From an uncultured Eubacteriales bacterium (GTDB lineage Bacteria > Bacillota > Sulfobacillia > Fermentithermobacillales > Fermentithermobacillaceae): 43,377 nt of DNA. The DNA lies in contig CAYPVF010000001.1 of NCBI GenBank assembly GCA_964414105.1, positions 1 through 43,377 on the forward strand, in the 5' to 3' direction. The notes beneath the pieces were generated by a model that made no database searches, had not been told where the DNA came from, and worked only from the letters and a program-made list of their open reading frames with translations. The translations under genes and the position numbers were made by a program. Shown piece after piece: positions 19,438 to 37,029 of this stretch (position 1 is the stretch's first letter; every line of letters starts with the position of its first letter).

Positions 19438-21258
19438 TCAAGTCTTAATCATAGCGTCAGTCGGCGAAATGTACACCGAGATATTGCCGTCCTGACTAAG
19501 TTGTGTGTTGTCCAGTAAGCTATCTGCTATTCTATCGCTTATGTCCGCGTTGGTTATAAGCAAAATAATCTCTTTTTCGGGTTGCAGTTCCACTTTGAGA
19601 ACAGGGAGCATCACTTTTCCCCGCTCGTCGGTGCCGCGTCCGTGAATAATCGTAGCCCCTGTGGCGCCTGATTGTCGGGCAAGCTCTACCGCTTTATTGG
19701 CAAAGCCGCGGTTTACGAGCACAAGCATACAGTCGTGATGCAAACTTGTCTGTTCCGCACCGGCCAAGGCAGGTGTAAGCACGGTTGAAGCGGCGGGATA
19801 CTCCACTTTTTTGTGGCGAAAAGCCGTTCCCAGGATCATAAGGGAAAGTACGGGGGACATAGCGACCATGGCGATAACGCCAAACCCATCCACCAATACG
19901 TTTGCCGTGTCTATAACAGTGGCCGCGCCCTGGGCGAAAGCCAGAACAAAAGTGGCAGTCATTGGGCCGGATGCAACCCCTCCCGCGTCATATGCGATGC
20001 CCACAAAAACAGGATCTGATTTGAATGAAAGCAAGATGGCGATGGCAAAACCCGGGAAAAGGAAGTACCATATTTTAACCGCAGGCACCAAAATTCTTAC
20101 CATGGACAAAGCGATAGCTATTGCCACTCCCGCTGACAGAGTGAGGCGGATGAGGTTCACAGGTATATGTCCGCCGCTGACCTCTTCGATTTGCCCGCTA
20201 AGGACGTGAACGGCAGGTTCGGCCAAAACCACTATAAGACCCAGGAAGAAACCAGTGCCGATTAGAAACCACTTGTTGAGCTGGGCGATTTCCATACCAA
20301 TGATTCTTCCCATATCCATAAATCCCGAATTCACGGCGGCCAAAAATAACACGAAGCCAACCAAAGTCCAAATGAGGCCCCTTATGATCTCCATGAGTTC
20401 GTCCTTTGGTATTTTGAACTTCACGAAATTGTAGGCGAAGAATAGGCTTGAAATAGGCAAAAGCGCTGCCAGTGACTCCTTAATGGCAGCCGGGAAAGAT
20501 TTCAGTATGGGGCCGATTATCCCTTGAGCGATCACAAATTCGGCCGCTTCACCTTGTATATGTTTCTGCCCCGATATGATGGACATAAGAATCACTGCCA
20601 GTATGGGGCCCGCGCTCATAACCCCCACAAGGCCGAAGGCGTTTTCTTCTGACTTGTCGCCGCCCTTAACTTGAGAAAGACCAAGCGACAACGCCAAGAT
20701 GAACGGTGTGGTAAACGAGCCGGTAGTTGCACCCGAAGCGTCGAACGAAATGGCTAGAAACTCCTCAGACACAAAGAGAGCCAAAACGAAAATTATGCCA
20801 TAAGTAATGCCCATGAATCTGTTAAACGGTTTATCTCGAAGAAGCCTAAAGACGCCCAAGGAAATTAGGACGCCGACGCCCACCGATACCATATATACGA
20901 TTACGAAAGAGCCCAGCGTTCCGCCTGACGCGGAATTTACCTGGGCGCCTAAAATCAGTAAATCTGGTTCCGCTACGGTAATCAGGAACCCCATGAGAAA
21001 GCTTAGGATTGCTATTTTAACGGGGGTTTTTGAGGTGGCCACCTCCCGTGACATATGACCCCCTATGGGGTTCATAGCCAAATCTACTCCCCACAGAAAA
21101 ATGGAAAGTCCAACGAGCAGCATGAGGCTGGCCACAAAGAATCGTAAAATGATGTCTTTTTCAATATCGATTGCCGTAAAGCAGATAACCATGACCAGCA
21201 CTACGACTAAAAGTAAGGTTCGGGCGACTTCCTTAGTTTTGTCGAAAAGAAGATTCAT
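19438..21258 (-). CDS. Membrane protein with two DUF1538 repeats fused to a C-terminal P-II-like (GlnB-fold) domain
   Basis: 606 aa. Repeated AEP motifs (ITVAEPDLLILGAQV; VVLAEPAVHVLSGQIEEVSGG) sit in a polytopic body. The tail LVLVNRGFANKAVELARQSGATGATIIHGRGT is P-II-like. ATG follows AGGAGG and overlaps the upstream gene by 26 nt. Confidence 0.75.
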   Translation of the reverse strand: MNLLFDKTKEVARTLLLVVVLVMVICFTAIDIEKDIILRFFVASLMLLVGLSIFLWGVDLAMNPIGGHMSREVATSKTPVKIAILSFLMGFLITVAEPDLLILGAQVNSASGGTLGSFVIVYMVSVGVGVLISLGVFRLLRDKPFNRFMGITYGIIFVLALFVSEEFLAISFDASGATTGSFTTPFILALSLGLSQVKGGDKSEENAFGLVGVMSAGPILAVILMSIISGQKHIQGEAAEFVIAQGIIGPILKSFPAAIKESLAALLPISSLFFAYNFVKFKIPKDELMEIIRGLIWTLVGFVLFLAAVNSGFMDMGRIIGMEIAQLNKWFLIGTGFFLGLIVVLAEPAVHVLSGQIEEVSGGHIPVNLIRLTLSAGVAIAIALSMVRILVPAVKIWYFLFPGFAIAILLSFKSDPVFVGIAYDAGGVASGPMTATFVLAFAQGAATVIDTANVLVDGFGVIAMVAMSPVLSLMILGTAFRHKKVEYPAASTVLTPALAGAEQTSLHHDCMLVLVNRGFANKAVELARQSGATGATIIHGRGTDERGKVMLPVLKVELQPEKEIILLITNADISDRIADSLLDNTQLSQDGNISVYISPTDAMIKT

Positions 21259-21949
21259 GAACCTGGCCCTCCTGTTTGCCTAAGTCGTGGTGAATGCCGC
21301 TGGTCTTTATGACAGGCAGAACAAAAATGATACCGTTTCCCGCTTGTTCAAGGTTTAACTCGCGGAAGATTCTATCTTTTATGGGCTCTACCTTGTCCTT
21401 TGTAGTGACGATCATAACGATGTCTTTCCCGGGTTCTATAACTAACGGGAAATAGAAATCTGTGGGCACACCGGCTCCCCTGCCGCGAAATAACGTGGCG
21501 CCCCTGGCGCCTGCGGCTCTGGCAGCCCTTATACAGTCTTTGCTTCGGCCCTTGTCAACAATTGTCATTATGCAGTACTCGTCAAAATCTTGCATTGCGG
21601 GATATTTACGGGCGGCTTCCGCAGTTTGGGGGTGTTTACGTTGGAAGGGAACCGAGAACGCAATTCCCCTATTCTTCTTTGAGAAGACGAAGGTCTCACT
21701 TATCACATTATGCAAGTTTTCGCATTGGCTACCCGAACACGACACGACCAAGATTTCTTTTTGGGTTTTTGCCAACCCCAGTTTCTCAAACAACTTGGAT
21801 TGCACTGTGCCTTCTCCCAGAAAGATGGTACCCCCGGCTGCGCCGCATTCTTGCGCTTTACGAAGTACCGCGTTTGCTTTTCCTCTGTTAACTATGACGA
21901 AAAACAAAACGTCCAGTACCGCCACCCCCAAGTCTTCTGTTTTTCCCAT
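21233..21949 (-). CDS. Tandem (two-domain) P-II-like protein
   Basis: 238 aa with two P-II-like halves: FVIVNRGKANAVLRKAQECGAAGGTIFLGEGT and MTIVDKGRSKDCIRAARAAGARGATLFRGRGAG. Confidence 0.7.
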   Translation of the reverse strand: MGKTEDLGVAVLDVLFFVIVNRGKANAVLRKAQECGAAGGTIFLGEGTVQSKLFEKLGLAKTQKEILVVSCSGSQCENLHNVISETFVFSKKNRGIAFSVPFQRKHPQTAEAARKYPAMQDFDEYCIMTIVDKGRSKDCIRAARAAGARGATLFRGRGAGVPTDFYFPLVIEPGKDIVMIVTTKDKVEPIKDRIFRELNLEQAGNGIIFVLPVIKTSGIHHDLGKQEGQVHESSFRQN

Positions 21950-22771: not shown

Positions 22772-22810
22772 TTAACCGTGCCTAAACTGTTTGAACAAGG
22801 AGGGATAGCG

Positions 22811-23398
22811 GTGGATAATAGCGCCCTAATAGTGGTCGATGTGCAAAACGATTTTTGCCCCGGCGGGGCGTTGGGCGTTTTCGAGGGAGATAGAATAATA
22901 CCCGTGCTCAACAAATGGATTGGTTTATTTGCGAAGCGGGGCATGCCTGTTGTCTACACAAAGGATTGGCACCCGGGAAACCATTGTTCGTTTATAGAAC
23001 AAGGGGGTGTTTGGCCCGCTCACTGTGTGCAAGGTACAGATGGGGCAGCCTTTCACCAGGACCTGGACGAGTTGGGCACACACAATGTGAAAGCCGTTTT
23101 TCTCAAAGGGTTTTTGCCTTCTGTAGAGGCTTATTCCGGGTTTGACGGAAGGCTGCGCGAGGATAAAAATGGCTTGACGTTGGCTCAGTGGCTTAAATCC
23201 AAAAACGTCGTCAAGCTCTATGTGGGTGGCCTTGCCACGGATTACTGTGTAAAAGCCACGGCCCTTGATGGGCTGGCAAACGGATTTTCTGTGAAGCTTA
23301 TAGCCGATGGCATACGCGCGGTCAATGTTAACCCTGAAGACGGAAAGCGTGCTATAGACGAAATGCTGCGTCAAGGCGTCGAAATTGCGCCTCAATAG
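22811..23398 (+). CDS. pncA: Nicotinamidase/pyrazinamidase (isochorismatase family)
   Basis: VVDVQNDFCPGGAL, WPAHCV and GGLATDYCVKAT (catalytic Cys). I moved the start to GTG 22811, after AAGGAGGG. Confidence 0.85.
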   Translation: MDNSALIVVDVQNDFCPGGALGVFEGDRIIPVLNKWIGLFAKRGMPVVYTKDWHPGNHCSFIEQGGVWPAHCVQGTDGAAFHQDLDELGTHNVKAVFLKGFLPSVEAYSGFDGRLREDKNGLTLAQWLKSKNVVKLYVGGLATDYCVKATALDGLANGFSVKLIADGIRAVNVNPEDGKRAIDEMLRQGVEIAPQ

Positions 23399-23534
23399 CT
23401 ATAAGTCTCAAAATTTTCGCGGATCTTTCGGCAGGAGTTACTAGGATTCTTGTGGAAGTTCAATAATTGGTTTTAAACCGATTGTGTCGTATGGTTTTGT
23501 TACGGTATGGCAATCAAATAAGGGGGCCTTGGAA

Positions 23535-24719
23535 GTGGAAAGCAAACAGTTCAAGGGGTTGGTATTTGGAATTCCCAAAGAGATCATGGCCGGAGAAAAA
23601 CGTGTCGCCGCTGTTCCTGACACCGTGAAGAAACTGGTCGCGGCCGGCGCAAAAGTACTGGTTGAAAAAGGCGCAGGCCAGGGTTATTTCGCTTTGGATG
23701 AGGATTACAAACAATCCGGGGCAGAAGTTCTGGATGATCCCAAAGAAATATTTGCCCAAGCTGATGTCATTTTGAAAGTCAAAGAGCCTCAATTTAACTC
23801 CGCCCACAACATCCATGAAGTAGATATGATGCATGCGGGTCAGATTCTTATTACGTTCTTGCACCCTGCCGCACCCATAAACCACGAAATGGTAAAGAAT
23901 CTTGCGGCAAAAGGGGTCACAGGGTTAACTTTAGACGGCATTCCTCGAATTTCAAGGGCCCAGTCTATGGATGCACTTACTTCTATGAGCACTGTCGCGG
24001 GTTATAAAAGCGTTATCATGGCTACGGACAGGCTTGCCAAATTTGTCCCAATGATTGGCACCGCGGTGGGGATGATTCAGCCTTCCAACGTGTTGGTAAT
24101 AGGGGCGGGTGTCGCCGGGCTGCAGGCCATCGCGACGGCTAAACGGTTGGGCGCCGTGGTGTATGCGGCAGACATTAGGCCTGACGCGGCGGAATATGTG
24201 AAAAGCTTGGGCGCCAGAGTGGTGGACACGGGCGTACCCCAAGACGTAGCCGTTGGGGAAGGCGGTTACGCCAACAGGCTTTCTGACCAGTGGCTGGAAA
24301 AAGAACGCGAGGCCATAAGAGATACAGTAATTAAATCCGACATTGTCATTTTGACGGCCTTAGTGCCTGGCAAAGTGGCGCCGGTTCTGGTAACAGAAGA
24401 AATGGTCAAAAATATGAAACACGGCTCGGCGATTGTAGACGTCGCCATAGACCAAGGTGGTAACTGCGAATTGACGGTGGGCGGCGAAGTAGTCCTAAGA
24501 CACGGCGTAAGCATCGACGGCACCAAAAACATCCCCGGTATGATGCCTGTGAGTTCCACTTGGATGTTTGCGAACAATATCTACAATTTGGTCTCAGCGT
24601 TCTGTAAAGATGGGGAATTCGTTGTTGACCTTACAGATGAGATAATGGCTTCCATTATTGTCACCCAAGACGGAAAACTTGTTCACGCCGGCGCCCGGGA
24701 GGCTATGGGGCTCGAATAA
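23535..24719 (+). CDS. pntAA: NAD(P) transhydrogenase subunit alpha part 1 (dI, NAD(H)-binding)
   Basis: IPKEIMAGEKRVA, LVIGAGVAGLQAIATAKRLGAVV (Rossmann) and the AlaDH/PNT family layout. I moved the start to GTG 23535, after AAGGGGG. Confidence 0.9.
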   Translation: MESKQFKGLVFGIPKEIMAGEKRVAAVPDTVKKLVAAGAKVLVEKGAGQGYFALDEDYKQSGAEVLDDPKEIFAQADVILKVKEPQFNSAHNIHEVDMMHAGQILITFLHPAAPINHEMVKNLAAKGVTGLTLDGIPRISRAQSMDALTSMSTVAGYKSVIMATDRLAKFVPMIGTAVGMIQPSNVLVIGAGVAGLQAIATAKRLGAVVYAADIRPDAAEYVKSLGARVVDTGVPQDVAVGEGGYANRLSDQWLEKEREAIRDTVIKSDIVILTALVPGKVAPVLVTEEMVKNMKHGSAIVDVAIDQGGNCELTVGGEVVLRHGVSIDGTKNIPGMMPVSSTWMFANNIYNLVSAFCKDGEFVVDLTDEIMASIIVTQDGKLVHAGAREAMGLE

Positions 24720-25032: not shown

Positions 25033-27534
25033 ATGGATACGTACAAAATAGTCTCTATTCTTTTGGCTGCTCTCGTTTTGGGTGGCCTCAAACTTATGAG
25101 CTCGCCCAAAACTGCCGTGAAAGGTAACCGCCTGGGTGCCTTAAGCATGCTGGCTTCTGTAGCGCTGGTACTTTGGACCAATAATATCCTTACTGTACCG
25201 CTTTTGTGGGCGGCTATATTGGTGGGTTCTTCAATTGGGGTCATAATGGGTCAAAAAGTGGCAATGATTCAAATGCCCCAAATGGTTGCTTTGCTAAATG
25301 GATTAGGCGGCGGCGCGTCGGCATTGGTTGCTTTGGTGGAAATCTTGGGAAAGCCCCAGGCTATGGATTGGTTCAGTAAACTCACGGGTGAGCTTGCACT
25401 AATAGTGGGCGCCGTAACTTTGACAGGCAGTCTCATAGCTGCCGGCAAACTGGACAGGCGTCTCAATCAAAAACCTGTTGTGCTACCCAACCATTCTGTT
25501 TACTCCACAGGTAGCCTTGTCTTGATGGGCGCACTTTCTTTGGCCGCAATACCGGCGGCTAGTTCCGCCTTTGTAAGCATCAGTTTTGTGGTGCTATTTT
25601 TGGGGCTGGGGTATGGAATCTTGTTCGCCATACGGGTAGGCGGCGCCGATATGCCGGTCACAATTTCTTTGCTGAACTCTTTTTCCGGTTTGGCGGGTTC
25701 AATATGCGGTTTTACCATAGGCGAACCCCTGCTTGTGGCGGTGGGTGCTATAGTGGGCGCATCTGGCTTGATTCTTACCCAGATAATGTGCAGGGCTATG
25801 AACAGATCCTTAGGGGATGTGCTCAGCGGGTCAGCTTCCAAGGGCAAAAAAGCGGACAAGCCGGGAACAGCCGTGCCTAAGCCTGAGGTTGCGCCCGGTG
25901 CTGCGGCGGAAAAGATGCCCTCGGATGAAGAGTCGATAGCCGAGATTATGTCGGGAGCCAAAACCGTGGTCATAGTGCCCGGTTATGGGATGGCTATTGC
26001 CCAGGCCCAATCCCAGGTTAAAGCCTTAATGGATGCTTTTGTGGCCAAAGGGGCAGACGTGAAATTCGCCATACACCCGGTGGCAGGCAGGATGCCGGGA
26101 CATATGAACGTTTTGTTGGCAGAGGTTGACGTTCCCTACGAGTTGATGTTGGAAATGGATGATATAAATCCTCAGTTTGAGGATACAGATCTGGGCATCG
26201 TCGTGGGTGCTTGTGATGTGGTAAATCCCGCGGCGGGTACAGCCGAAGGCACGCCAATATACGGGATGCCGGTTTTGGAGATTGAGCGGTGCAAACATGT
26301 TATCGTGTGTAACCTTGACACTAAGCCGGGCTATTCAGGCGTGGACAATACCTTGTACGGTATGGAACATGTCCGGTTGGTTTTGGGTGATGCCGCTGAA
26401 ACAGTAAAAGGGCTTGCTGACAGTTTGAGGGGGACGCCCGAAAAGGCGCTCCAAGAGGCGCAGCCCGAGCCGCGACACGACTCTTTGCAGCACGTTATCA
26501 AAGCGGCCAAAAGTGTCGTTATCGTGCCCGGTTACGGTATGGCCATAGCCCAGGCCCAATCCCAGGTGAAAGCTTTGATGGATGCTTTTGTGGCCAACGG
26601 GGCAGACGTGAAGTTTGCCATCCATCCTGTAGCGGGTAGAATGCCTGGCCATATGAACGTGCTATTGGCAGAGGTTGATGTTCCCTACGAGTTGATGTTG
26701 GAAATGGATGACATAAATCCTCAGTTTAAGGATACAGATCTGGGCATCGTCGTGGGGGCCTGTGATGTGGTAAATCCCGCGGCGGGTACAGCCGAAGGCA
26801 CGCCAATATACGGGATGCCGGTTCTCACTGTGGAGCAGTGTAAGCAGGTTATCGTGTGTAATCTGGATACCAAGCCGGGCTATTCCGGCGTGGATAATAC
26901 CTTATACGATATGGATCACGTCCGGTTAGTTTTGGGTGATGCCGCCGAAACAGTCAGACAGCTTACTGACAGTTTGAAGGGGGCGCCCGAAAAGATGCCC
27001 CAAGAGGCTCAACTTAAGCCCAAGCACGAGCCTTTGGACGGCATCCTTAAAGCCGCGAAAAGTGTTGTAATCGTGCCAGGTTACGGTATGGCTATAGCTC
27101 AGGCTCAATCCCAGGTCAAAGCTCTAATGGATTCTTTTGTGTCAAAAGGGGCGGATGTGAAATTCGCCATACATCCTGTGGCAGGCAGAATGCCGGGGCA
27201 TATGAACGTTTTGCTGGCGGAGGTTGATGTTCCCTACGAATTGATGTTGGAGATGGATGACATAAATCCTCAGTTTAGGGACACAGATCTTGGAATTATT
27301 GTAGGTGCTTGTGACGTGGTGAATCCCGCGGCGGGCACCGCTGAAGGCACGCCAATATACGGGATGCCCATTTTGACAGTGGAGCAGTGCAAGCATGTTA
27401 TCGTGTGCAACCTGGATACCAACCCGGGCTATTCCGGAGTAGATAACACCTTGTATGATATGCCCCATGTGCTTTTGGTTTTGGGCGACGCCGCGGACAC
27501 AGTCAAAGGGCTTGTAGACCAACTAAACAGTTGA
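25033..27534 (+). CDS. pntB: NAD(P) transhydrogenase subunit beta with triplicated C-terminal NADP(H)-binding (dIII) domain
   Basis: 833 aa, uninterrupted. The dII membrane part contains GGADMPVTISLLNS and IMCRAMNRS. Three tandem linker+dIII modules follow, each with VIVPGYGMAIAQAQ, HPVAGRMPGHMNVLLAE, GACDVVNPAA and PGYSGVDN. Confidence 0.9.
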   Translation: MDTYKIVSILLAALVLGGLKLMSSPKTAVKGNRLGALSMLASVALVLWTNNILTVPLLWAAILVGSSIGVIMGQKVAMIQMPQMVALLNGLGGGASALVALVEILGKPQAMDWFSKLTGELALIVGAVTLTGSLIAAGKLDRRLNQKPVVLPNHSVYSTGSLVLMGALSLAAIPAASSAFVSISFVVLFLGLGYGILFAIRVGGADMPVTISLLNSFSGLAGSICGFTIGEPLLVAVGAIVGASGLILTQIMCRAMNRSLGDVLSGSASKGKKADKPGTAVPKPEVAPGAAAEKMPSDEESIAEIMSGAKTVVIVPGYGMAIAQAQSQVKALMDAFVAKGADVKFAIHPVAGRMPGHMNVLLAEVDVPYELMLEMDDINPQFEDTDLGIVVGACDVVNPAAGTAEGTPIYGMPVLEIERCKHVIVCNLDTKPGYSGVDNTLYGMEHVRLVLGDAAETVKGLADSLRGTPEKALQEAQPEPRHDSLQHVIKAAKSVVIVPGYGMAIAQAQSQVKALMDAFVANGADVKFAIHPVAGRMPGHMNVLLAEVDVPYELMLEMDDINPQFKDTDLGIVVGACDVVNPAAGTAEGTPIYGMPVLTVEQCKQVIVCNLDTKPGYSGVDNTLYDMDHVRLVLGDAAETVRQLTDSLKGAPEKMPQEAQLKPKHEPLDGILKAAKSVVIVPGYGMAIAQAQSQVKALMDSFVSKGADVKFAIHPVAGRMPGHMNVLLAEVDVPYELMLEMDDINPQFRDTDLGIIVGACDVVNPAAGTAEGTPIYGMPILTVEQCKHVIVCNLDTNPGYSGVDNTLYDMPHVLLVLGDAADTVKGLVDQLNS
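25903..27531 (+). repeat. Three in-frame tandem coding repeats (531, 549, 549 nt) inside pntB
   Basis: Unit boundaries are 25903, 26434 and 26983. The AK(T/S)VVIVPGYG codons recur at 25957, 26506 and 27055, an exact 549-nt period. Confidence 0.9.
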
Positions 27535-27560: not shown

Positions 27561-27595
27561 AAGACGCTTTCCCGTTGGGAGGGCGTCTTTTTTTG
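27561..27595 (+). terminator. Rho-independent terminator after pntB
   Basis: aagacgc...gcgtctt stem with an inner ccc/ggg pair, followed by a T-run (tttttt). Confidence 0.7.
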
Positions 27596-27745: not shown

Positions 27746-27810
27746 GATTATAATTGTGTATCGCAGAATTATCCTAGTGAATACTCGTTTTGGTTGGGAG
27801 AGTGGAATGT

Positions 27811-28950
27811 TTGCAGTATAGAAAATTCGGTCGGCACGATGTGCAGGTTTCCGCGTTGGGTTTCGGGATGATGCGCCTGCCAATCCTGGATGGCGACACG
27901 TCTAGAATAGATGAGGCGAAGACCCAGGAAATGATCGAGTACGCCATTGGTCAGGGTGTGAACTACTTCGACACCGCATATCCGTATCACCGCGAGCAAA
28001 GTGAAGTGATAACCGGCAAAGTCTTGAAAAACGGTTACCGTGACCGCGTGTATTTGGCTACAAAATGTCCAAGCTGGCTTATACAAACACATGACGATTA
28101 CGACAAATATTTGGACATACAGTTTCGCCGGCTTCAAACCGATTGTATCGACATGTACCTCATGCACAGTCTTGATAAAGACCGCTGGGATGGGTTGGTA
28201 AAGACAGATGTGTTCGGGTTCATGGATAAAGCCAAAGCCGACGGCAGGATAAGGTTCGCCGGGTTTTCTTTCCACGATGACATCGATACGTTCAAGAAAA
28301 TCGTAGACGCCTACGACTGGGATTTTTGCCAAATACAATACAACTATATGGATGAACAGTTTCAAGCGGGGACTGAGGGGCTGAAATACGCCCATGCTAA
28401 AGATATGGCTGTGATAGTGATGGAACCTTTGAGAGGCGGGACTTTGGCTCGAAGTGGTTTGCCCCAAGTCCAGGCAGTGTGGGACAAAGAAAATCCATCA
28501 AGAAAACCCGCGGAATGGGGCTTGCGCTGGGTATGGAATCATCCCGAGGTAAGCCTTCTTCTTAGCGGAATGGGAGAGATGTATCAGGTTGTGGAGAACG
28601 TGAACACAGCCAAGGACGCTTATCCTAACGCTCTTAGCCCAAAGGAGTTGGATATTTACGAGAGGGTAAAAGCCGTTTACCGCAGCCGCGTAAAAGTGGA
28701 TTGCACAGCCTGCGACTACTGCCAACCCTGCCCTCAAGGTATACGGATTCCTAACTGGTTCCAATCTTACAACACAGCAAGTATGTTCGATACTTTGGCT
28801 ACCTTTGGCCAATCCTACGAAAGGTTAAAAGGCGAATTGGGCAACCCGGCCATTTGCGCCGAGTGTGGACAGTGCGAAGCCGTATGCCCGCAGAGTCTGC
28901 AAATCATTGACCATCTGAAGGAGATAGTCAGAGCTCTTCGGGAAAACTAG
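27811..28950 (+). CDS. Aldo/keto reductase fused to a C-terminal 4Fe-4S ferredoxin-type domain
   Basis: LQYRKFG..., GVNYFDTAYPY and AKR blocks. C-terminal CTACDYCQPCP and CAECGQCEAVCP. The start is uncertain: TTG 27811 lies 9 nt after GGGAGAG, and the ORF-track start is 27790. Confidence 0.8.
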   Translation: MQYRKFGRHDVQVSALGFGMMRLPILDGDTSRIDEAKTQEMIEYAIGQGVNYFDTAYPYHREQSEVITGKVLKNGYRDRVYLATKCPSWLIQTHDDYDKYLDIQFRRLQTDCIDMYLMHSLDKDRWDGLVKTDVFGFMDKAKADGRIRFAGFSFHDDIDTFKKIVDAYDWDFCQIQYNYMDEQFQAGTEGLKYAHAKDMAVIVMEPLRGGTLARSGLPQVQAVWDKENPSRKPAEWGLRWVWNHPEVSLLLSGMGEMYQVVENVNTAKDAYPNALSPKELDIYERVKAVYRSRVKVDCTACDYCQPCPQGIRIPNWFQSYNTASMFDTLATFGQSYERLKGELGNPAICAECGQCEAVCPQSLQIIDHLKEIVRALREN

Positions 28951-29002
28951 AAGCACACGCACCTATTTTCGCGGACAGATGACACTGGGCGGAGGCTTAC
29001 AA

Positions 29003-29902
29003 ATGGAGAAGATACGGGTTTGTGTCGTAGGTTATGGAAACGTGGGAAAAGAAGCGGCAGTATGCGTCCGCCAGGCGCCCGACATGGAACTGGGTGGCGT
29101 AATTCATAGCCACCCCATACATCAAGATATCGGTTGCCCGGTGGGGTCTAAAATCACAGATCTGAAATCATTTGGCAAAGTGGATGCCGCGGTTTTGGCT
29201 GTTCCGTCTCGTATTGTACCCATTTTGGCCCCTTCCTATCTGGAACAAGGTATAAACACTGTGGATTGCTTTGATATCCACGGCGACGGGGTGCTGGGGC
29301 TCAGGACGAAATTAGGGAATTGTGCCGAGGCCAATAAAAGCGTTTCCATAATCTCGGCAGGCTGGGATCCCGGCACGGATTCTGTGATACGAATACTTTT
29401 CCAGGCCATGACCCCGCGGGGCTTAACCTACACGGACTACGGGCCGGGCATGAGCATGGGGCACACAGTGGCCGCCAAAGCCATACCCGGGGTAAAAGCC
29501 GCCCTTTCCATGACAATACCTAAAGGTTCCGGTCATCATCGCAGGGATGTTTACGTTGAGCTTGACGAGACCGCCGTTTTTTGCGATGTTTCCGAAGCAA
29601 TAAAAAGCGACCCGTATTTCGTCAACGATGAAACACACGTGACCCAGGTTCCGGATATTTCGGAGGTACGCTCCATGGGTCATGGCGTGTTTCTTTCGAG
29701 GCGCGGCAGTTCCGGTACAGCGCAAAATCAAAGGCTTGAGCTAAAGCTGAGTGTTGCGAACCCTTCTGTTACGGCCCAAATTATGGTCTCAGCCGTCAGG
29801 GCTTCGTTTAAGCTTTCGCCGGGGGCCTATACGCTTCCGGAGGTTCCGCCTATATACCTATTGCCCGGGGATGAGGACGATCTTATAAGGCGGCTGGTAT
29901 AA
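29003..29902 (+). CDS. ddh: meso-Diaminopimelate D-dehydrogenase
   Basis: IRVCVVGYGNVGK, SAGWDPGTDS, GPGMSMGHT and the C-terminal DDLIRRLV match the Ddh pattern. ATG 29003 lies 7 nt after GGCGGAGG. Confidence 0.85.
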   Translation: MEKIRVCVVGYGNVGKEAAVCVRQAPDMELGGVIHSHPIHQDIGCPVGSKITDLKSFGKVDAAVLAVPSRIVPILAPSYLEQGINTVDCFDIHGDGVLGLRTKLGNCAEANKSVSIISAGWDPGTDSVIRILFQAMTPRGLTYTDYGPGMSMGHTVAAKAIPGVKAALSMTIPKGSGHHRRDVYVELDETAVFCDVSEAIKSDPYFVNDETHVTQVPDISEVRSMGHGVFLSRRGSSGTAQNQRLELKLSVANPSVTAQIMVSAVRASFKLSPGAYTLPEVPPIYLLPGDEDDLIRRLV

Positions 29903-34668: not shown

Positions 34669-37029
34669 TTGAGAGAAAGAATAGAAAAACTTCGAACTCT
34701 GAGTCTTGAAACTGTGCCGACTTTGTCAGTAGAGCGTGGAAGGCTTGTAACAGAAGCCTACAAGAAGTATGAAGGAACGGTTTCCACCCCTGTACTAAGA
34801 GCGCTCACATTTAAGCATCTCATGGAGCAAAAGACCATTTATATAGGCCCCGGTGAGTTAATTGTCGGTGAGAGAGGGCCCGGCCCAAAAGCGACCCCTA
34901 CCTATCCGGAGCTATGTTGCCACACGGTGGAGGACTTTGATGTTATCGACAAGCGGGAAAAAACATTTTTCAAGGTAAGCGATGAAGCAAAGAAAATTCA
35001 AGGCGACGAAATCATTCCTTACTGGGAACATAGGGCCATTCGAACCAAGCTGTTGGAGCATATGACAAAGGAATGGACCGATTGCTACGAGGCAGGAATT
35101 TTCACTGAGTTTATGGAGCAACGTGCGCCCGGCCATACTGTGGCCGACGACAAAGTGTACCATAATGGGTTTTTGGGCTTTAAAAAGGAAATCCAAAAAT
35201 CCATAGAATCTTTGGATTTTCATAGCGACAAAAGCGCTTTCGACAAAAAGGAACAGCTGAAAGCTATGTCCATATGTTGTGACGGAATAATAAGTTTCGG
35301 CAAGCGTCACGCCGAAAAGGCACTGCAATTGGCTGAAGAAACCACCGACCCTGTGCGAAAAGCTGAACTCTTGGAGATAGCGGAGGTCTGCAATCATGTT
35401 CCCGCTAATGCCCCCAGGAATTTCAGGGAAGCACTGCAGATGTATTGGTTCTTGCACTTGGGGGTTATAACCGAGCTCAACACTTGGGACTCTTTCAACC
35501 CGGGAAGGCTTGATCAGCATCTTTACCCGTTTTACAAAAAGGGTTTGGAAGACGGTACTTTAACCAAAGACGACGCTAAGGAATTGCTCCACGCTTTTTG
35601 GGTAAAGTTCAACAACCAACCTGCCCCCCCTAAGGTGGGGATTACTTTGGCTGAAAGCGGCACATACACAGATTTTGCCAACATTAACAGCGGCGGCCTG
35701 AAGAAAGACGGCTCTGACGGCGTTAACGACGTCACTTATTTGGTTTTGGAAGTTATCGACGAAATGCAGATTTTGCAGCCGAGTTCAAACATTCAGGTTA
35801 GCAAGAAGAATCCCGACAAGTTTGTACGAAAAGCTTGCGAGATAATTCGGCGCGGTTGGGGACAGCCGTCGGTGTTTAACGCGGATGCTGTCATAGAAGA
35901 AATGCTGTTGGCAGGTAAATCTGTGGAAGACGCGCGTATGGGCGGGACTAGCGGATGCGTAGAAACCGGCGCTTTTGGGAAAGAAAGCTATATCCTTACG
36001 GGGTATTTCAATCTTCCTAAAGTTCTGGAAATCACCATGCACAATGGTTACGACCCAAGGGTAGGGAAGCAGCTGGGTCTGAAGACTGGGGAAGTGACCA
36101 CGTTTACTTCTTTTGATGAGCTCATGGAAGCTTTCAAAAAGCAGCTTAAGCATTTTGTGGACATTAAGGTTAGAGGGAACAATGTAATAGAGAACTTGTA
36201 CGCCAAATACATGCCTTGTCCTTTCCTTTCTATTACTGTCAGTGACTGCATAAAAGACGGCACCGATTACAACGCGGGGGGCGCGCGGTACCATACCCGT
36301 TACATCCAAGGTGTGGGCATCGGGTCTATTACAGACAGTTTGGCGGCCCTAAAGCAGTACGTATACGAAGAAAAGTCCATTTCTATGGATAAATTTCTGA
36401 AAATCTTGGATGACGATTTCCAAGGCCATGAAGTGATTCGGCAGATGATGATGAATAAGGCTCACAAGTATGGAAACGATGACGACTACGCCGACGATAT
36501 CATGCGAGAAGTTTTCGACCTGTTCCACGACGAAGTTACCGGTAGAGAAACGCCCACTGGCGGCACTTACCGCATTGACATGTTGCCAACTACCTGCCAT
36601 GTGTACTTCGGTTCGGTGATTGGCGCTACTCCCGACGGCCGCAACGCGGGTGAACCGTTATCTGAGGGAATTTCACCTGTTCAGGGTAGGGATAGGTTTG
36701 GCCCGACTGCTGTTGTCAAATCGGCTTCGAAAATGGATCACACCAAAACCGGCGGTACCTTATTAAACCAGAAGTTTACTCCCAAACTTCTGGAAGGGCC
36801 TGAAGGTTTGGATGCTTTGGTGAACCTCATAAGAGGCTATTTCAAGCTAGGCGGCCACCATATTCAGTTTAACGTGGTAAGCGCCGATACTTTGCGAGAT
36901 GCTCAGGCGCATCCGGATAAGTACAGAGACCTCATCGTTAGAGTAGCGGGTTATTCCGATTATTTCTGTGACCTAACCCAGGCTCTTCAGGATGAGATCA
37001 TCGCGAGAACCGAACACCAATCGTTCTAG
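34669..37029 (+). CDS. hypD: Glycyl-radical enzyme, most likely trans-4-hydroxy-L-proline dehydratase
   Basis: 786 aa. Gly-radical motif RVAGYSDYF and Cys loop GGTSGCVETG. The N-terminal blocks (EAYKKYEG, VLRAL.FKH, FTEFMEQRAPGHTV, KFNNQPAPPKVGITL.ES.TYTDFANIN) match my recollection of Clostridioides difficile HypD, and the gene context is proline/hydroxyproline metabolism. TTG start 10 nt after GGGAGGG. Confidence 0.75.
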   Translation: MRERIEKLRTLSLETVPTLSVERGRLVTEAYKKYEGTVSTPVLRALTFKHLMEQKTIYIGPGELIVGERGPGPKATPTYPELCCHTVEDFDVIDKREKTFFKVSDEAKKIQGDEIIPYWEHRAIRTKLLEHMTKEWTDCYEAGIFTEFMEQRAPGHTVADDKVYHNGFLGFKKEIQKSIESLDFHSDKSAFDKKEQLKAMSICCDGIISFGKRHAEKALQLAEETTDPVRKAELLEIAEVCNHVPANAPRNFREALQMYWFLHLGVITELNTWDSFNPGRLDQHLYPFYKKGLEDGTLTKDDAKELLHAFWVKFNNQPAPPKVGITLAESGTYTDFANINSGGLKKDGSDGVNDVTYLVLEVIDEMQILQPSSNIQVSKKNPDKFVRKACEIIRRGWGQPSVFNADAVIEEMLLAGKSVEDARMGGTSGCVETGAFGKESYILTGYFNLPKVLEITMHNGYDPRVGKQLGLKTGEVTTFTSFDELMEAFKKQLKHFVDIKVRGNNVIENLYAKYMPCPFLSITVSDCIKDGTDYNAGGARYHTRYIQGVGIGSITDSLAALKQYVYEEKSISMDKFLKILDDDFQGHEVIRQMMMNKAHKYGNDDDYADDIMREVFDLFHDEVTGRETPTGGTYRIDMLPTTCHVYFGSVIGATPDGRNAGEPLSEGISPVQGRDRFGPTAVVKSASKMDHTKTGGTLLNQKFTPKLLEGPEGLDALVNLIRGYFKLGGHHIQFNVVSADTLRDAQAHPDKYRDLIVRVAGYSDYFCDLTQALQDEIIARTEHQSF

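Follow-up and report, generated by a model that had tools for sequence, protein, structure and literature searches.

The 43,377-nucleotide (nt) stretch analysed here (the window) comes from an uncultured Eubacteriales bacterium of the family Fermentithermobacillaceae (contig CAYPVF010000001.1 of assembly GCA_964414105.1) and contains a pnt operon for a nicotinamide nucleotide transhydrogenase, predicted from its sequence to carry out proton-coupled hydride transfer between NADH and NADP+. Its beta subunit, PntB, differs from the canonical protein in two respects: a single membrane domain (dII) is followed by three tandem copies of dIII, the nucleotide-binding domain, instead of one, and Asn-Leu-Asp (N-L-D) replaces the canonical Lys-Arg-Ser (KRS) or KRG motif of dIII. 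The three units are old copies under purifying selection, and window PntB is one member of a large, unremarked family of anaerobes. As far as found, it represents a known enzyme in an undescribed architecture, the absence of a description being absence of evidence only. A preliminary description of this DNA, made from the sequence alone, had stated that the accepted model with one dIII per beta subunit does not cover the three-dIII form, and the present analysis upholds that statement.

The dIII array of window PntB

The three genes are arranged in the order pntAA-pntAB-pntB, with pntAA and pntAB directly upstream of pntB and a terminator after it. The operon order and the split alpha subunit are the same as in the canonical PntAA/PntAB/PntB enzymes of Thermus thermophilus (4O9U) and Rhodospirillum rubrum. 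Low confidence in the AlphaFold2 (AF2) model is given below as the predicted local distance difference test (pLDDT), and positions in amino acids (aa) refer to PntB.

23484-24719, + strand: pntAA, soluble NAD(H)-binding dI subunit, one copy; Pfam AlaDh_PNT_N 155 bits, AlaDh_PNT_C 209 bits
24740-25015, + strand: pntAB, small membrane subunit forming the alpha part of dII, one copy; Pfam PNTB_4TM 114 bits, full length
25033-27534, + strand: pntB, 833-aa beta subunit with dII and three tandem dIII units
25033-25836, + strand: membrane domain dII, aa 1-268; aligns collinearly to dII of T. thermophilus PntB, E 5e-37
25837-25935, + strand: flexible dII-dIII linker, aa 269-301; Lys/Pro/Ala/Glu-rich; AF2 pLDDT below 50 at aa 269-298
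25936-26433, + strand: dIII unit 1, aa 302-467; secondary-structure pattern as in units 2 and 3
26434-26484, + strand: inter-unit linker 1, TPEKALQEAQPEPRHDS; AF2 pLDDT below 50 at aa 475-482
26485-26982, + strand: dIII unit 2, aa 485-650; phmmer E 1e-49 to T. thermophilus dIII
26983-27033, + strand: inter-unit linker 2, APEKMPQEAQLKPKHEP; AF2 pLDDT below 50 at aa 652-664
27034-27531, + strand: dIII unit 3, aa 668-833; the C-terminal unit
26311-26319 (unit 1), 26860-26868 (unit 2) and 27409-27417 (unit 3), + strand: Asn-Leu-Asp at the canonical KRS position
26212-26274, identical to 26761-26823, + strand: 63-nt identical run in units 1 and 2, a probable gene-conversion tract
27561-27589, + strand: intrinsic-terminator-like hairpin, 13-bp stem followed by a T run; closes the pnt operon

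The open reading frame (ORF) of pntB is unbroken over its 833 aa, and a protein identical to its product is present in NCBI and ENA (P0002). The Pfam profile PNTB (PF02233) matches this product in three stretches with a total of 1011.7 bits (cut-off 31.7), the first of which (aa 6-462, profile positions 3-454 of 456) covers dII and one dIII. A repeat search identified three direct copies whose starts are 549 nt apart in both intervals; with one 300-nt segment as reference, the other two copies are 89% and 85% identical to it. Tandem Repeats Finder is blind to the array and returned no match, as it reaches only to periods of 500 and the unit measures 549 nt. The ORF, the three PNTB stretches and the 549-nt period thus bear out the one dII and three dIII of the preliminary description; its module limits (aa 291-467, 468-650 and 651-833) are correct, every motif that it quoted is present in each unit, and Pfam agrees that pntAA and pntAB are normal single copies. 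The score against NCBIfam NF006974, the PntB equivalog model, is 698.9 bits for a cut-off of 689, which is passed only marginally and because the three dIII matches add up; single-dIII members of the clade with Asn-x-Asp (N-x-D) at the KRS position, described below, may fall under it.

Over 150 aligned core codons, pairs of units have a DNA identity of 83-87% and a protein identity of 91-93%, unit 1 sharing 93% of its residues with unit 2 and 91% with unit 3; the mean column identity in the alignment of all three is 89%. Nei-Gojobori estimates of synonymous divergence (dS) for the three pairs are 0.60, 0.95 and 1.05, and those of non-synonymous divergence (dN) are 0.042-0.051, with dN/dS of 0.045-0.069. 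Such a high dS together with a dN of only 0.04-0.05 demands purifying selection on each unit. The variable positions among the units (23 of 160 in the core) lie mainly in the C-terminal helix and the linkers, and blocks of 23, 43 and 23 aa, which hold GYGMA, HPVAGRMPGHMNVLLAE, GACDVVNPAA and IYGMP, are invariant. At the nucleotide level the units differ at 63-89 of 480 core positions, mostly synonymous and with the frame intact, and the inter-unit linkers are unlike in length and sequence. Mis-assembly cannot be the source of dozens of mostly synonymous in-frame differences, and the assembly expansion that had been feared is thereby excluded. The longest identical run between units 1 and 2 is 63 nt in a pair diverged by about 13% (p = 0.003 in a permutation preserving codon position), and no comparable run joins unit 1 or unit 2 to unit 3. 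This run is a probable gene-conversion tract between units 1 and 2.

The AF2 model of window PntB (50 homologues used; mean pLDDT 80, predicted TM-score 0.50) consists of a helical dII and three domains of one fold with an alternating strand-helix pattern. The pLDDT falls below 50 only in the three linker stretches listed above and at five residues within unit 2. The preliminary description had proposed 23-aa linkers between the units. A low-confidence, flexible stretch is indeed predicted within each; because the stretches of low pLDDT are short, the flexible linkers are modelled at about 8-17 aa, with the remainder of the proposed 23 aa forming the N-terminal helix of the next dIII. In Foldseek comparisons with Escherichia coli 9L76, T. 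thermophilus 4O9U and ovine 6QTI, dII reaches TM-scores of 0.90-0.92 and the dIII fold, shared with canonical PntB, 0.81-0.85; among the solved chains matched, none has more than one dIII, and their beta chains measure 440-462 aa. Alignment to the collinear T. thermophilus dII revealed that both partners of the hinge salt bridge named in PMC5742237 are kept, the Asp in GGADMP and the Arg in MNRS, and dII looks functional as far as alignment and model can indicate. The GYGMA equivalent of dIII is kept, as are, in all three units, the equivalents of Y315, H345, R350, D392 and Y431 (E. coli numbering, at a constant offset).

We also considered internal initiation yielding free dIII. An in-frame ATG is found at 26994, in the linker before unit 3, with GAAGGGGG about 11-18 nt upstream (region 26975-26996), and a promoter scan inside pntB gave eight sites, no excess over the 6.1 +/- 2.5 of shuffled sequence. 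With the ATG at 26994 and its distant GAAGGGGG too weak a signal, internal initiation was rejected as the main explanation of the array.

Distribution and history of multi-dIII PntB

The best 120 database homologues of full-length window PntB all have three, four or five dIII units. Their lengths cluster accordingly at about 830-866, 980-1068 and 1168-1234 aa, with the exception of a protein of 971 aa with five motif matches. They include WP_006745617.1 of Bacteroides coprosuis DSM 18011 (1194 aa, five dIII, on a 2.99-Mb contig), WP_078736163.1 of Porphyromonas circumdentaria (1028 aa, four dIII) and NLN83417.1 of a Bacillota metagenome-assembled genome (MAG; 1010 aa, four dIII). These three have four to five units as against three in the window; they share the operon, N-x-D units and a period of about 180 aa with window PntB, and are 51-66% identical to it. 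Further carriers are P. uenonis, P. bennonis, P. gingivicanis, Dysgonomonas massiliensis and a Desulfovibrio sp., the isolates of Porphyromonas and Dysgonomonas including some with four units, and the cultured carriers comprise, among others, B. coprosuis DSM 18011, Porphyromonas endodontalis ATCC 35406 and D. massiliensis. All multi-dIII proteins are annotated plainly as "NAD(P)+ transhydrogenase subunit beta". Two or more dIII stretches are present in about 22 of the 4021 representatives with dIII in a library clustered at 50% identity.

In a survey of one genome per species (GTDB representatives), the best 80 among the matches listed, and so at least 80 loci, range over Bacillota, Bacteroidales, Treponema and others. 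Every one has a single dII, followed by two units in 29 loci, three in 42 (two of them frameshifted) and four in nine. A single separate pntAA and pntAB lie upstream throughout, save in three loci whose contig record lacks those genes. The best species-representative matches to the window protein belong to Bacillota MAGs and are 71% identical. Two Bacillota MAGs from an anaerobic membrane bioreactor (L050, 3965-6609; L051, 3989-6575) have a frameshift that divides a multi-dIII pntB into two ORFs; either the repeats were misassembled or the gene is a genuine pseudogene.

The preliminary description knew of no described multi-dIII form and named as the opposing outcome a form both common and already characterised. 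Homologue lengths and dIII counts establish the first half of that outcome, since proteins with two to five units are frequent in databases and occur in cultured type strains. The second half was not borne out: we found no published description of tandem or multiple dIII in the full-text literature (including the structural review PMC5742237, the isoform survey PMC7614955, the review of NADPH systems PMC4518329 and a 2026 E. coli cryo-EM paper), a scope that leaves out most subscription journals.

In a neighbour-joining (NJ) tree of dIII units, positional orthology is seen between close species, unit 1 of P. circumdentaria grouping with unit 1 of P. gingivicanis and so on to unit 4, and some Bacillota form separate clades of first, middle and last units. 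At larger distances the units group by protein. Full positional orthology was found in only 15 of 4025 protein pairs, meaning that units are mostly homogenised within one protein. The three units of the window form their own cluster, apart from those of the nearest relatives (two to three units), and must have arisen or been homogenised within the window lineage. Where orthology holds, all positions evolve equally, with identities of 0.887, 0.909 and 0.884 in three-unit pairs and about 0.70 for each position in four-unit pairs; neither the tree nor this comparison of rates gives any sign of positional specialisation. Of 436 spacings between units, all except three fall within 175-196 aa, and the linkers are rich in Ala, Glu, Thr, Ser, Lys and Pro.

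Copy number varies even between close relatives. The cluster of at least 90% identity represented by P0110 contains proteins of 865 aa (three units) and of 672 and 671 aa (two units), and assemblies of P. endodontalis have three or four units (L079 and L029, respectively). Such differences are either real polymorphism or the result of repeats collapsing when short reads were assembled. Relatives were compared at the level of dII by local BLAST among the gathered proteins, and by this measure single-dIII and multi-dIII proteins are intermixed at 64-69% identity, the range within which the dII of single-dIII N-x-D PntB of anaerobes matches that of the window. A separate homologue search with dII alone listed single-dIII proteins only; it left out P0002 and the rest of the proteins already found and is not usable for nearest relatives. 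Taken together, the history of the arrays is one of birth-and-death of units combined with concerted evolution through unequal recombination and gene conversion. Window PntB belongs to a large PntB clade of anaerobes (Bacillota, Bacteroidales, Treponema and Desulfovibrio) in which the number of dIII ranges from one to five and within which nearly all tandem arrays fall.

The nucleotide site and the surroundings of the operon

The KRS motif of canonical dIII contacts the 2'-phosphate of the nucleotide. At this position gap-free HMMER blocks align IKRG of T. thermophilus and IKRS of R. rubrum with CNLD of the window, and the region is also free of gaps in the phmmer alignment of unit 2 to T. thermophilus dIII. 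In E. coli PntB the motif (K424, R425 and S426) is part of the NADPH site and marks the start of loop E (PMC9529548). N-L-D takes its place in 3 of 3 window units. The NADP(H) competence of the units is therefore not established, and the earlier statement that all three units look able to bind NADP(H) claims too much.

The substitution is a clade trait that extends to single-dIII relatives, such as Tepidanaerobacter acetatoxydans; PntB of strain Re1 (464 aa, single dIII, N-x-D type) shares both CNLD and the long dII-dIII linker with the window. Among proteins with two to five dIII, 587 of 588 units are of the N type. We compared 419 unique N-type units with 71 K-type units, the classes being defined by position 424 (N or K). 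Position 425 is hydrophobic or aromatic in the N type and Arg in the K type, and position 426 is Asp in 417 of the 419 N-type units and Ser or Gly in the K type. No conserved compensating basic residue was found in the N-type units in this comparison. Every solved structure has KRS or KRG at this position, and no member of the N-x-D clade was found among them or in the literature covered. PntAA keeps what we take to be the NAD-type Asp after the second beta strand of dI.

A different case is P0292 (664 aa), a PntB of the KRS type whose additional dIII has diverged strongly (GYGAGRA, HPLAGHMPG); its first dIII has KRS and its second KRG. It resembles window PntB in having extra dIII at the C-terminus and differs from it in the KRS/KRG type. 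Its best 80 metagenome relatives are all single-dIII proteins, and it is apparently an independent, rare duplication outside the N-x-D clade.

Turning to the remainder of the window, an AGGAG-like ribosome-binding site precedes pntAB. Residues 3-368 of the 510 in the NCBIfam PntA alpha model are matched by pntAA, whose real start codon may lie downstream of 23484. Directly upstream of the operon (22778-23398, + strand) is a gene for a PncA-type nicotinamidase/pyrazinamidase (NCBIfam NF008623, 190.5 bits; cut-off 174), so that a gene of NAD salvage adjoins the transhydrogenase. Downstream are genes for an aldo/keto reductase fused to a 4Fe-4S dicluster domain (27790-28950, + strand) and for a protein with the C-terminal domain of diaminopimelate dehydrogenase (28979-29902, + strand), both of which may be NAD(P)H-dependent. 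Farther away, at 19438-21949 (- strand), a DUF1538 membrane protein (399 bits, two repeats) overlaps by 26 nt with a 238-aa protein carrying a P-II-like domain, a conserved-looking pair with no assigned function. A strictly anaerobic host would fit with the pyruvate formate-lyase-like glycyl-radical enzyme at 34669-37029 (+ strand), which scores 781 bits and also has a Gly_radical domain. Neither Rfam families nor tRNAs were detected in scans of the window.

Possible working modes of the array

In the canonical enzyme dIII is mobile and alternates between two partners. Nucleotide exchange and proton gating take place while it is docked face-down on dII; hydride transfer follows once it has left dII and reached dI. 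For that enzyme, PMC13635403 describes dIII leaving dII and a rise in its orientational dynamics upon nucleotide binding; according to PMC5742237, the canonical dII-dIII linker is flexible and three-subunit enzymes have dI on a polypeptide of its own. With mobile dIII copies on flexible tethers, equal constraint on the units and a soluble dI, the most economical reading of window PntB is that its dIII units are several interchangeable tethered carriers per proton channel, a reading to which we give slightly less than an even chance. Several equivalent units tethered to one dII would take turns: one would sit at the dII site while the others, already loaded, met free soluble dI dimers. Channel and dI would in this way be kept busier, giving higher throughput or robustness per membrane complex. 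Such carriers are supported by the selection on each unit, the equal rates at all unit positions in positionally orthologous pairs, the beads-on-a-string model with pLDDT below 50 nearly confined to the linkers, and the separate single pntAA of the best 80 loci, which leaves dI free to meet any unit. The mobility of canonical dIII, the functional look of dII and the wide maintenance of the multi-dIII form speak for them as well.

Tandem mobile carriers occur elsewhere, as in the three lipoyl domains of the E2p subunit of E. coli pyruvate dehydrogenase and the 5-9 tandem acyl carrier proteins (ACPs) of polyunsaturated fatty acid synthases. Like the dIII arrays as read here, these are near-identical small shuttling domains on short, flexible Ala/Pro/charged linkers, with a copy number that varies by species. 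Window PntB has the same two features, near-identical tandem domains (91-93% aa identity) and flexible linkers (pLDDT below 50). The folds and chemistry are unrelated, however, since dIII carries a non-covalent dinucleotide and its docking gates a proton channel, and the comparison, which is one of analogy, would concern the working mode and not family membership.

Several points weigh against tethered carriers. The slot for dIII in solved holoenzymes is sandwiched by dI and dII, so that steric hindrance may keep the extra units from cycling. A split pntAA is also usual in single-dIII relatives and is hence permissive only, and the equal constraint on the units is compatible with a scaffold or buffer role too. 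The labile copy number, which runs from two to five and differs between near-identical proteins, argues against a strict stoichiometric requirement. Finally, the loss of the KRS motif makes the identity and affinity of the bound nucleotide uncertain.

In an alternative, which we judge unlikely, only the membrane-proximal dIII goes through the proton-coupled cycle, while the distal units dock and concentrate dI dimers at the membrane or are tightly binding stores or sensors of NADP(H). The holoenzymes 4o9u, 6qti and 9l76 offer one slot per protomer between dI and dII, solved structures also show a dI dimer bound asymmetrically to one dIII on its own (1hzz, 1xlt, 2oor, 4j16), and dI is a separate soluble protein in the multi-dIII loci (best 80). 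Yet the distal units are neither relaxed nor specialised, with equal rates and, in the window, identical motif blocks. A dI-dIII pair that never visits dII would, moreover, perform uncoupled or cyclic transfer only, which would tend to dissipate the gradient-driven NADPH/NADP+ ratio.

The altered nucleotide site suggests another explanation, that an Asn-x-Asp dIII has a much weaker hold on the 2'-phosphate or favours a different dinucleotide and that the arrays are an adaptation to this, for example through avidity that makes up for weak binding. N-L-D at the KRS position in a gap-free block, within a known part of the NADPH site, the nearly invariant Asp426 without a conserved compensating basic residue, and the near-perfect association of arrays with the N type all favour it, as do the exclusively single-dIII relatives of the lone KRS-type two-dIII protein, P0292. 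Against this, N-x-D is also found in single-dIII members of the clade (Tepidanaerobacter and others), so the motif alone does not demand arrays. The equivalents of Y315, H345, R350, D392 and Y431 are kept, and an enzyme using NAD on both sides, given the presumed NAD-type Asp of dI, would perform no net chemistry. We regard this explanation as quite improbable.

Neutral expansion, in which unequal crossing-over adds harmless dIII units and gene conversion keeps them alike, accords with the labile copy number (865 versus 672 aa in one 90%-identity cluster, three versus four units in P. endodontalis), with the tract linking units 1 and 2 and with the grouping of units by protein at larger distances. 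Gene conversion, however, evens synonymous and non-synonymous sites alike, yet dS is 0.6-1.05 with a dN of 0.04-0.05; arrays of at least two units last in at least 80 species of several phyla, and positional orthologues are conserved between species. Neutral expansion is very unlikely. That a single dIII was expanded by mis-assembled reads is practically inconceivable, even though the window DNA is probably of metagenomic source, given the frame-preserving divergence of the units, their unlike linkers and the same architecture in isolate genomes, including the 2.99-Mb B. coprosuis contig.

Combining tethered carriers with the altered site leads to a bolder proposal, which we hold to be somewhat doubtful: an N-x-D dIII that handles its nucleotide unlike the textbook domain would be deployed as two to five interchangeable swinging carriers per proton channel, constituting a mechanistically distinct class of proton-translocating transhydrogenase in anaerobes. 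If so, the alternating two-site model with one dIII per protomer would not be general. To our knowledge, the current coupling models (binding-change, dIII flipping and anti-phase dimer) all assume one dIII per dII. A natural, selectively maintained series of one to five dIII is a ready-made experiment on two questions: is turnover limited by dIII docking and flipping, and does dI need its place above dII? For the quality control of MAGs, dIII copy number may collapse, or the gene be frameshifted, in assemblies. The loss of KRS across the clade calls into question which nucleotide these enzymes bind; their uniform annotation as NAD(P) transhydrogenase carries this question into metabolic reconstructions of anaerobes from gut, mouth and digesters.

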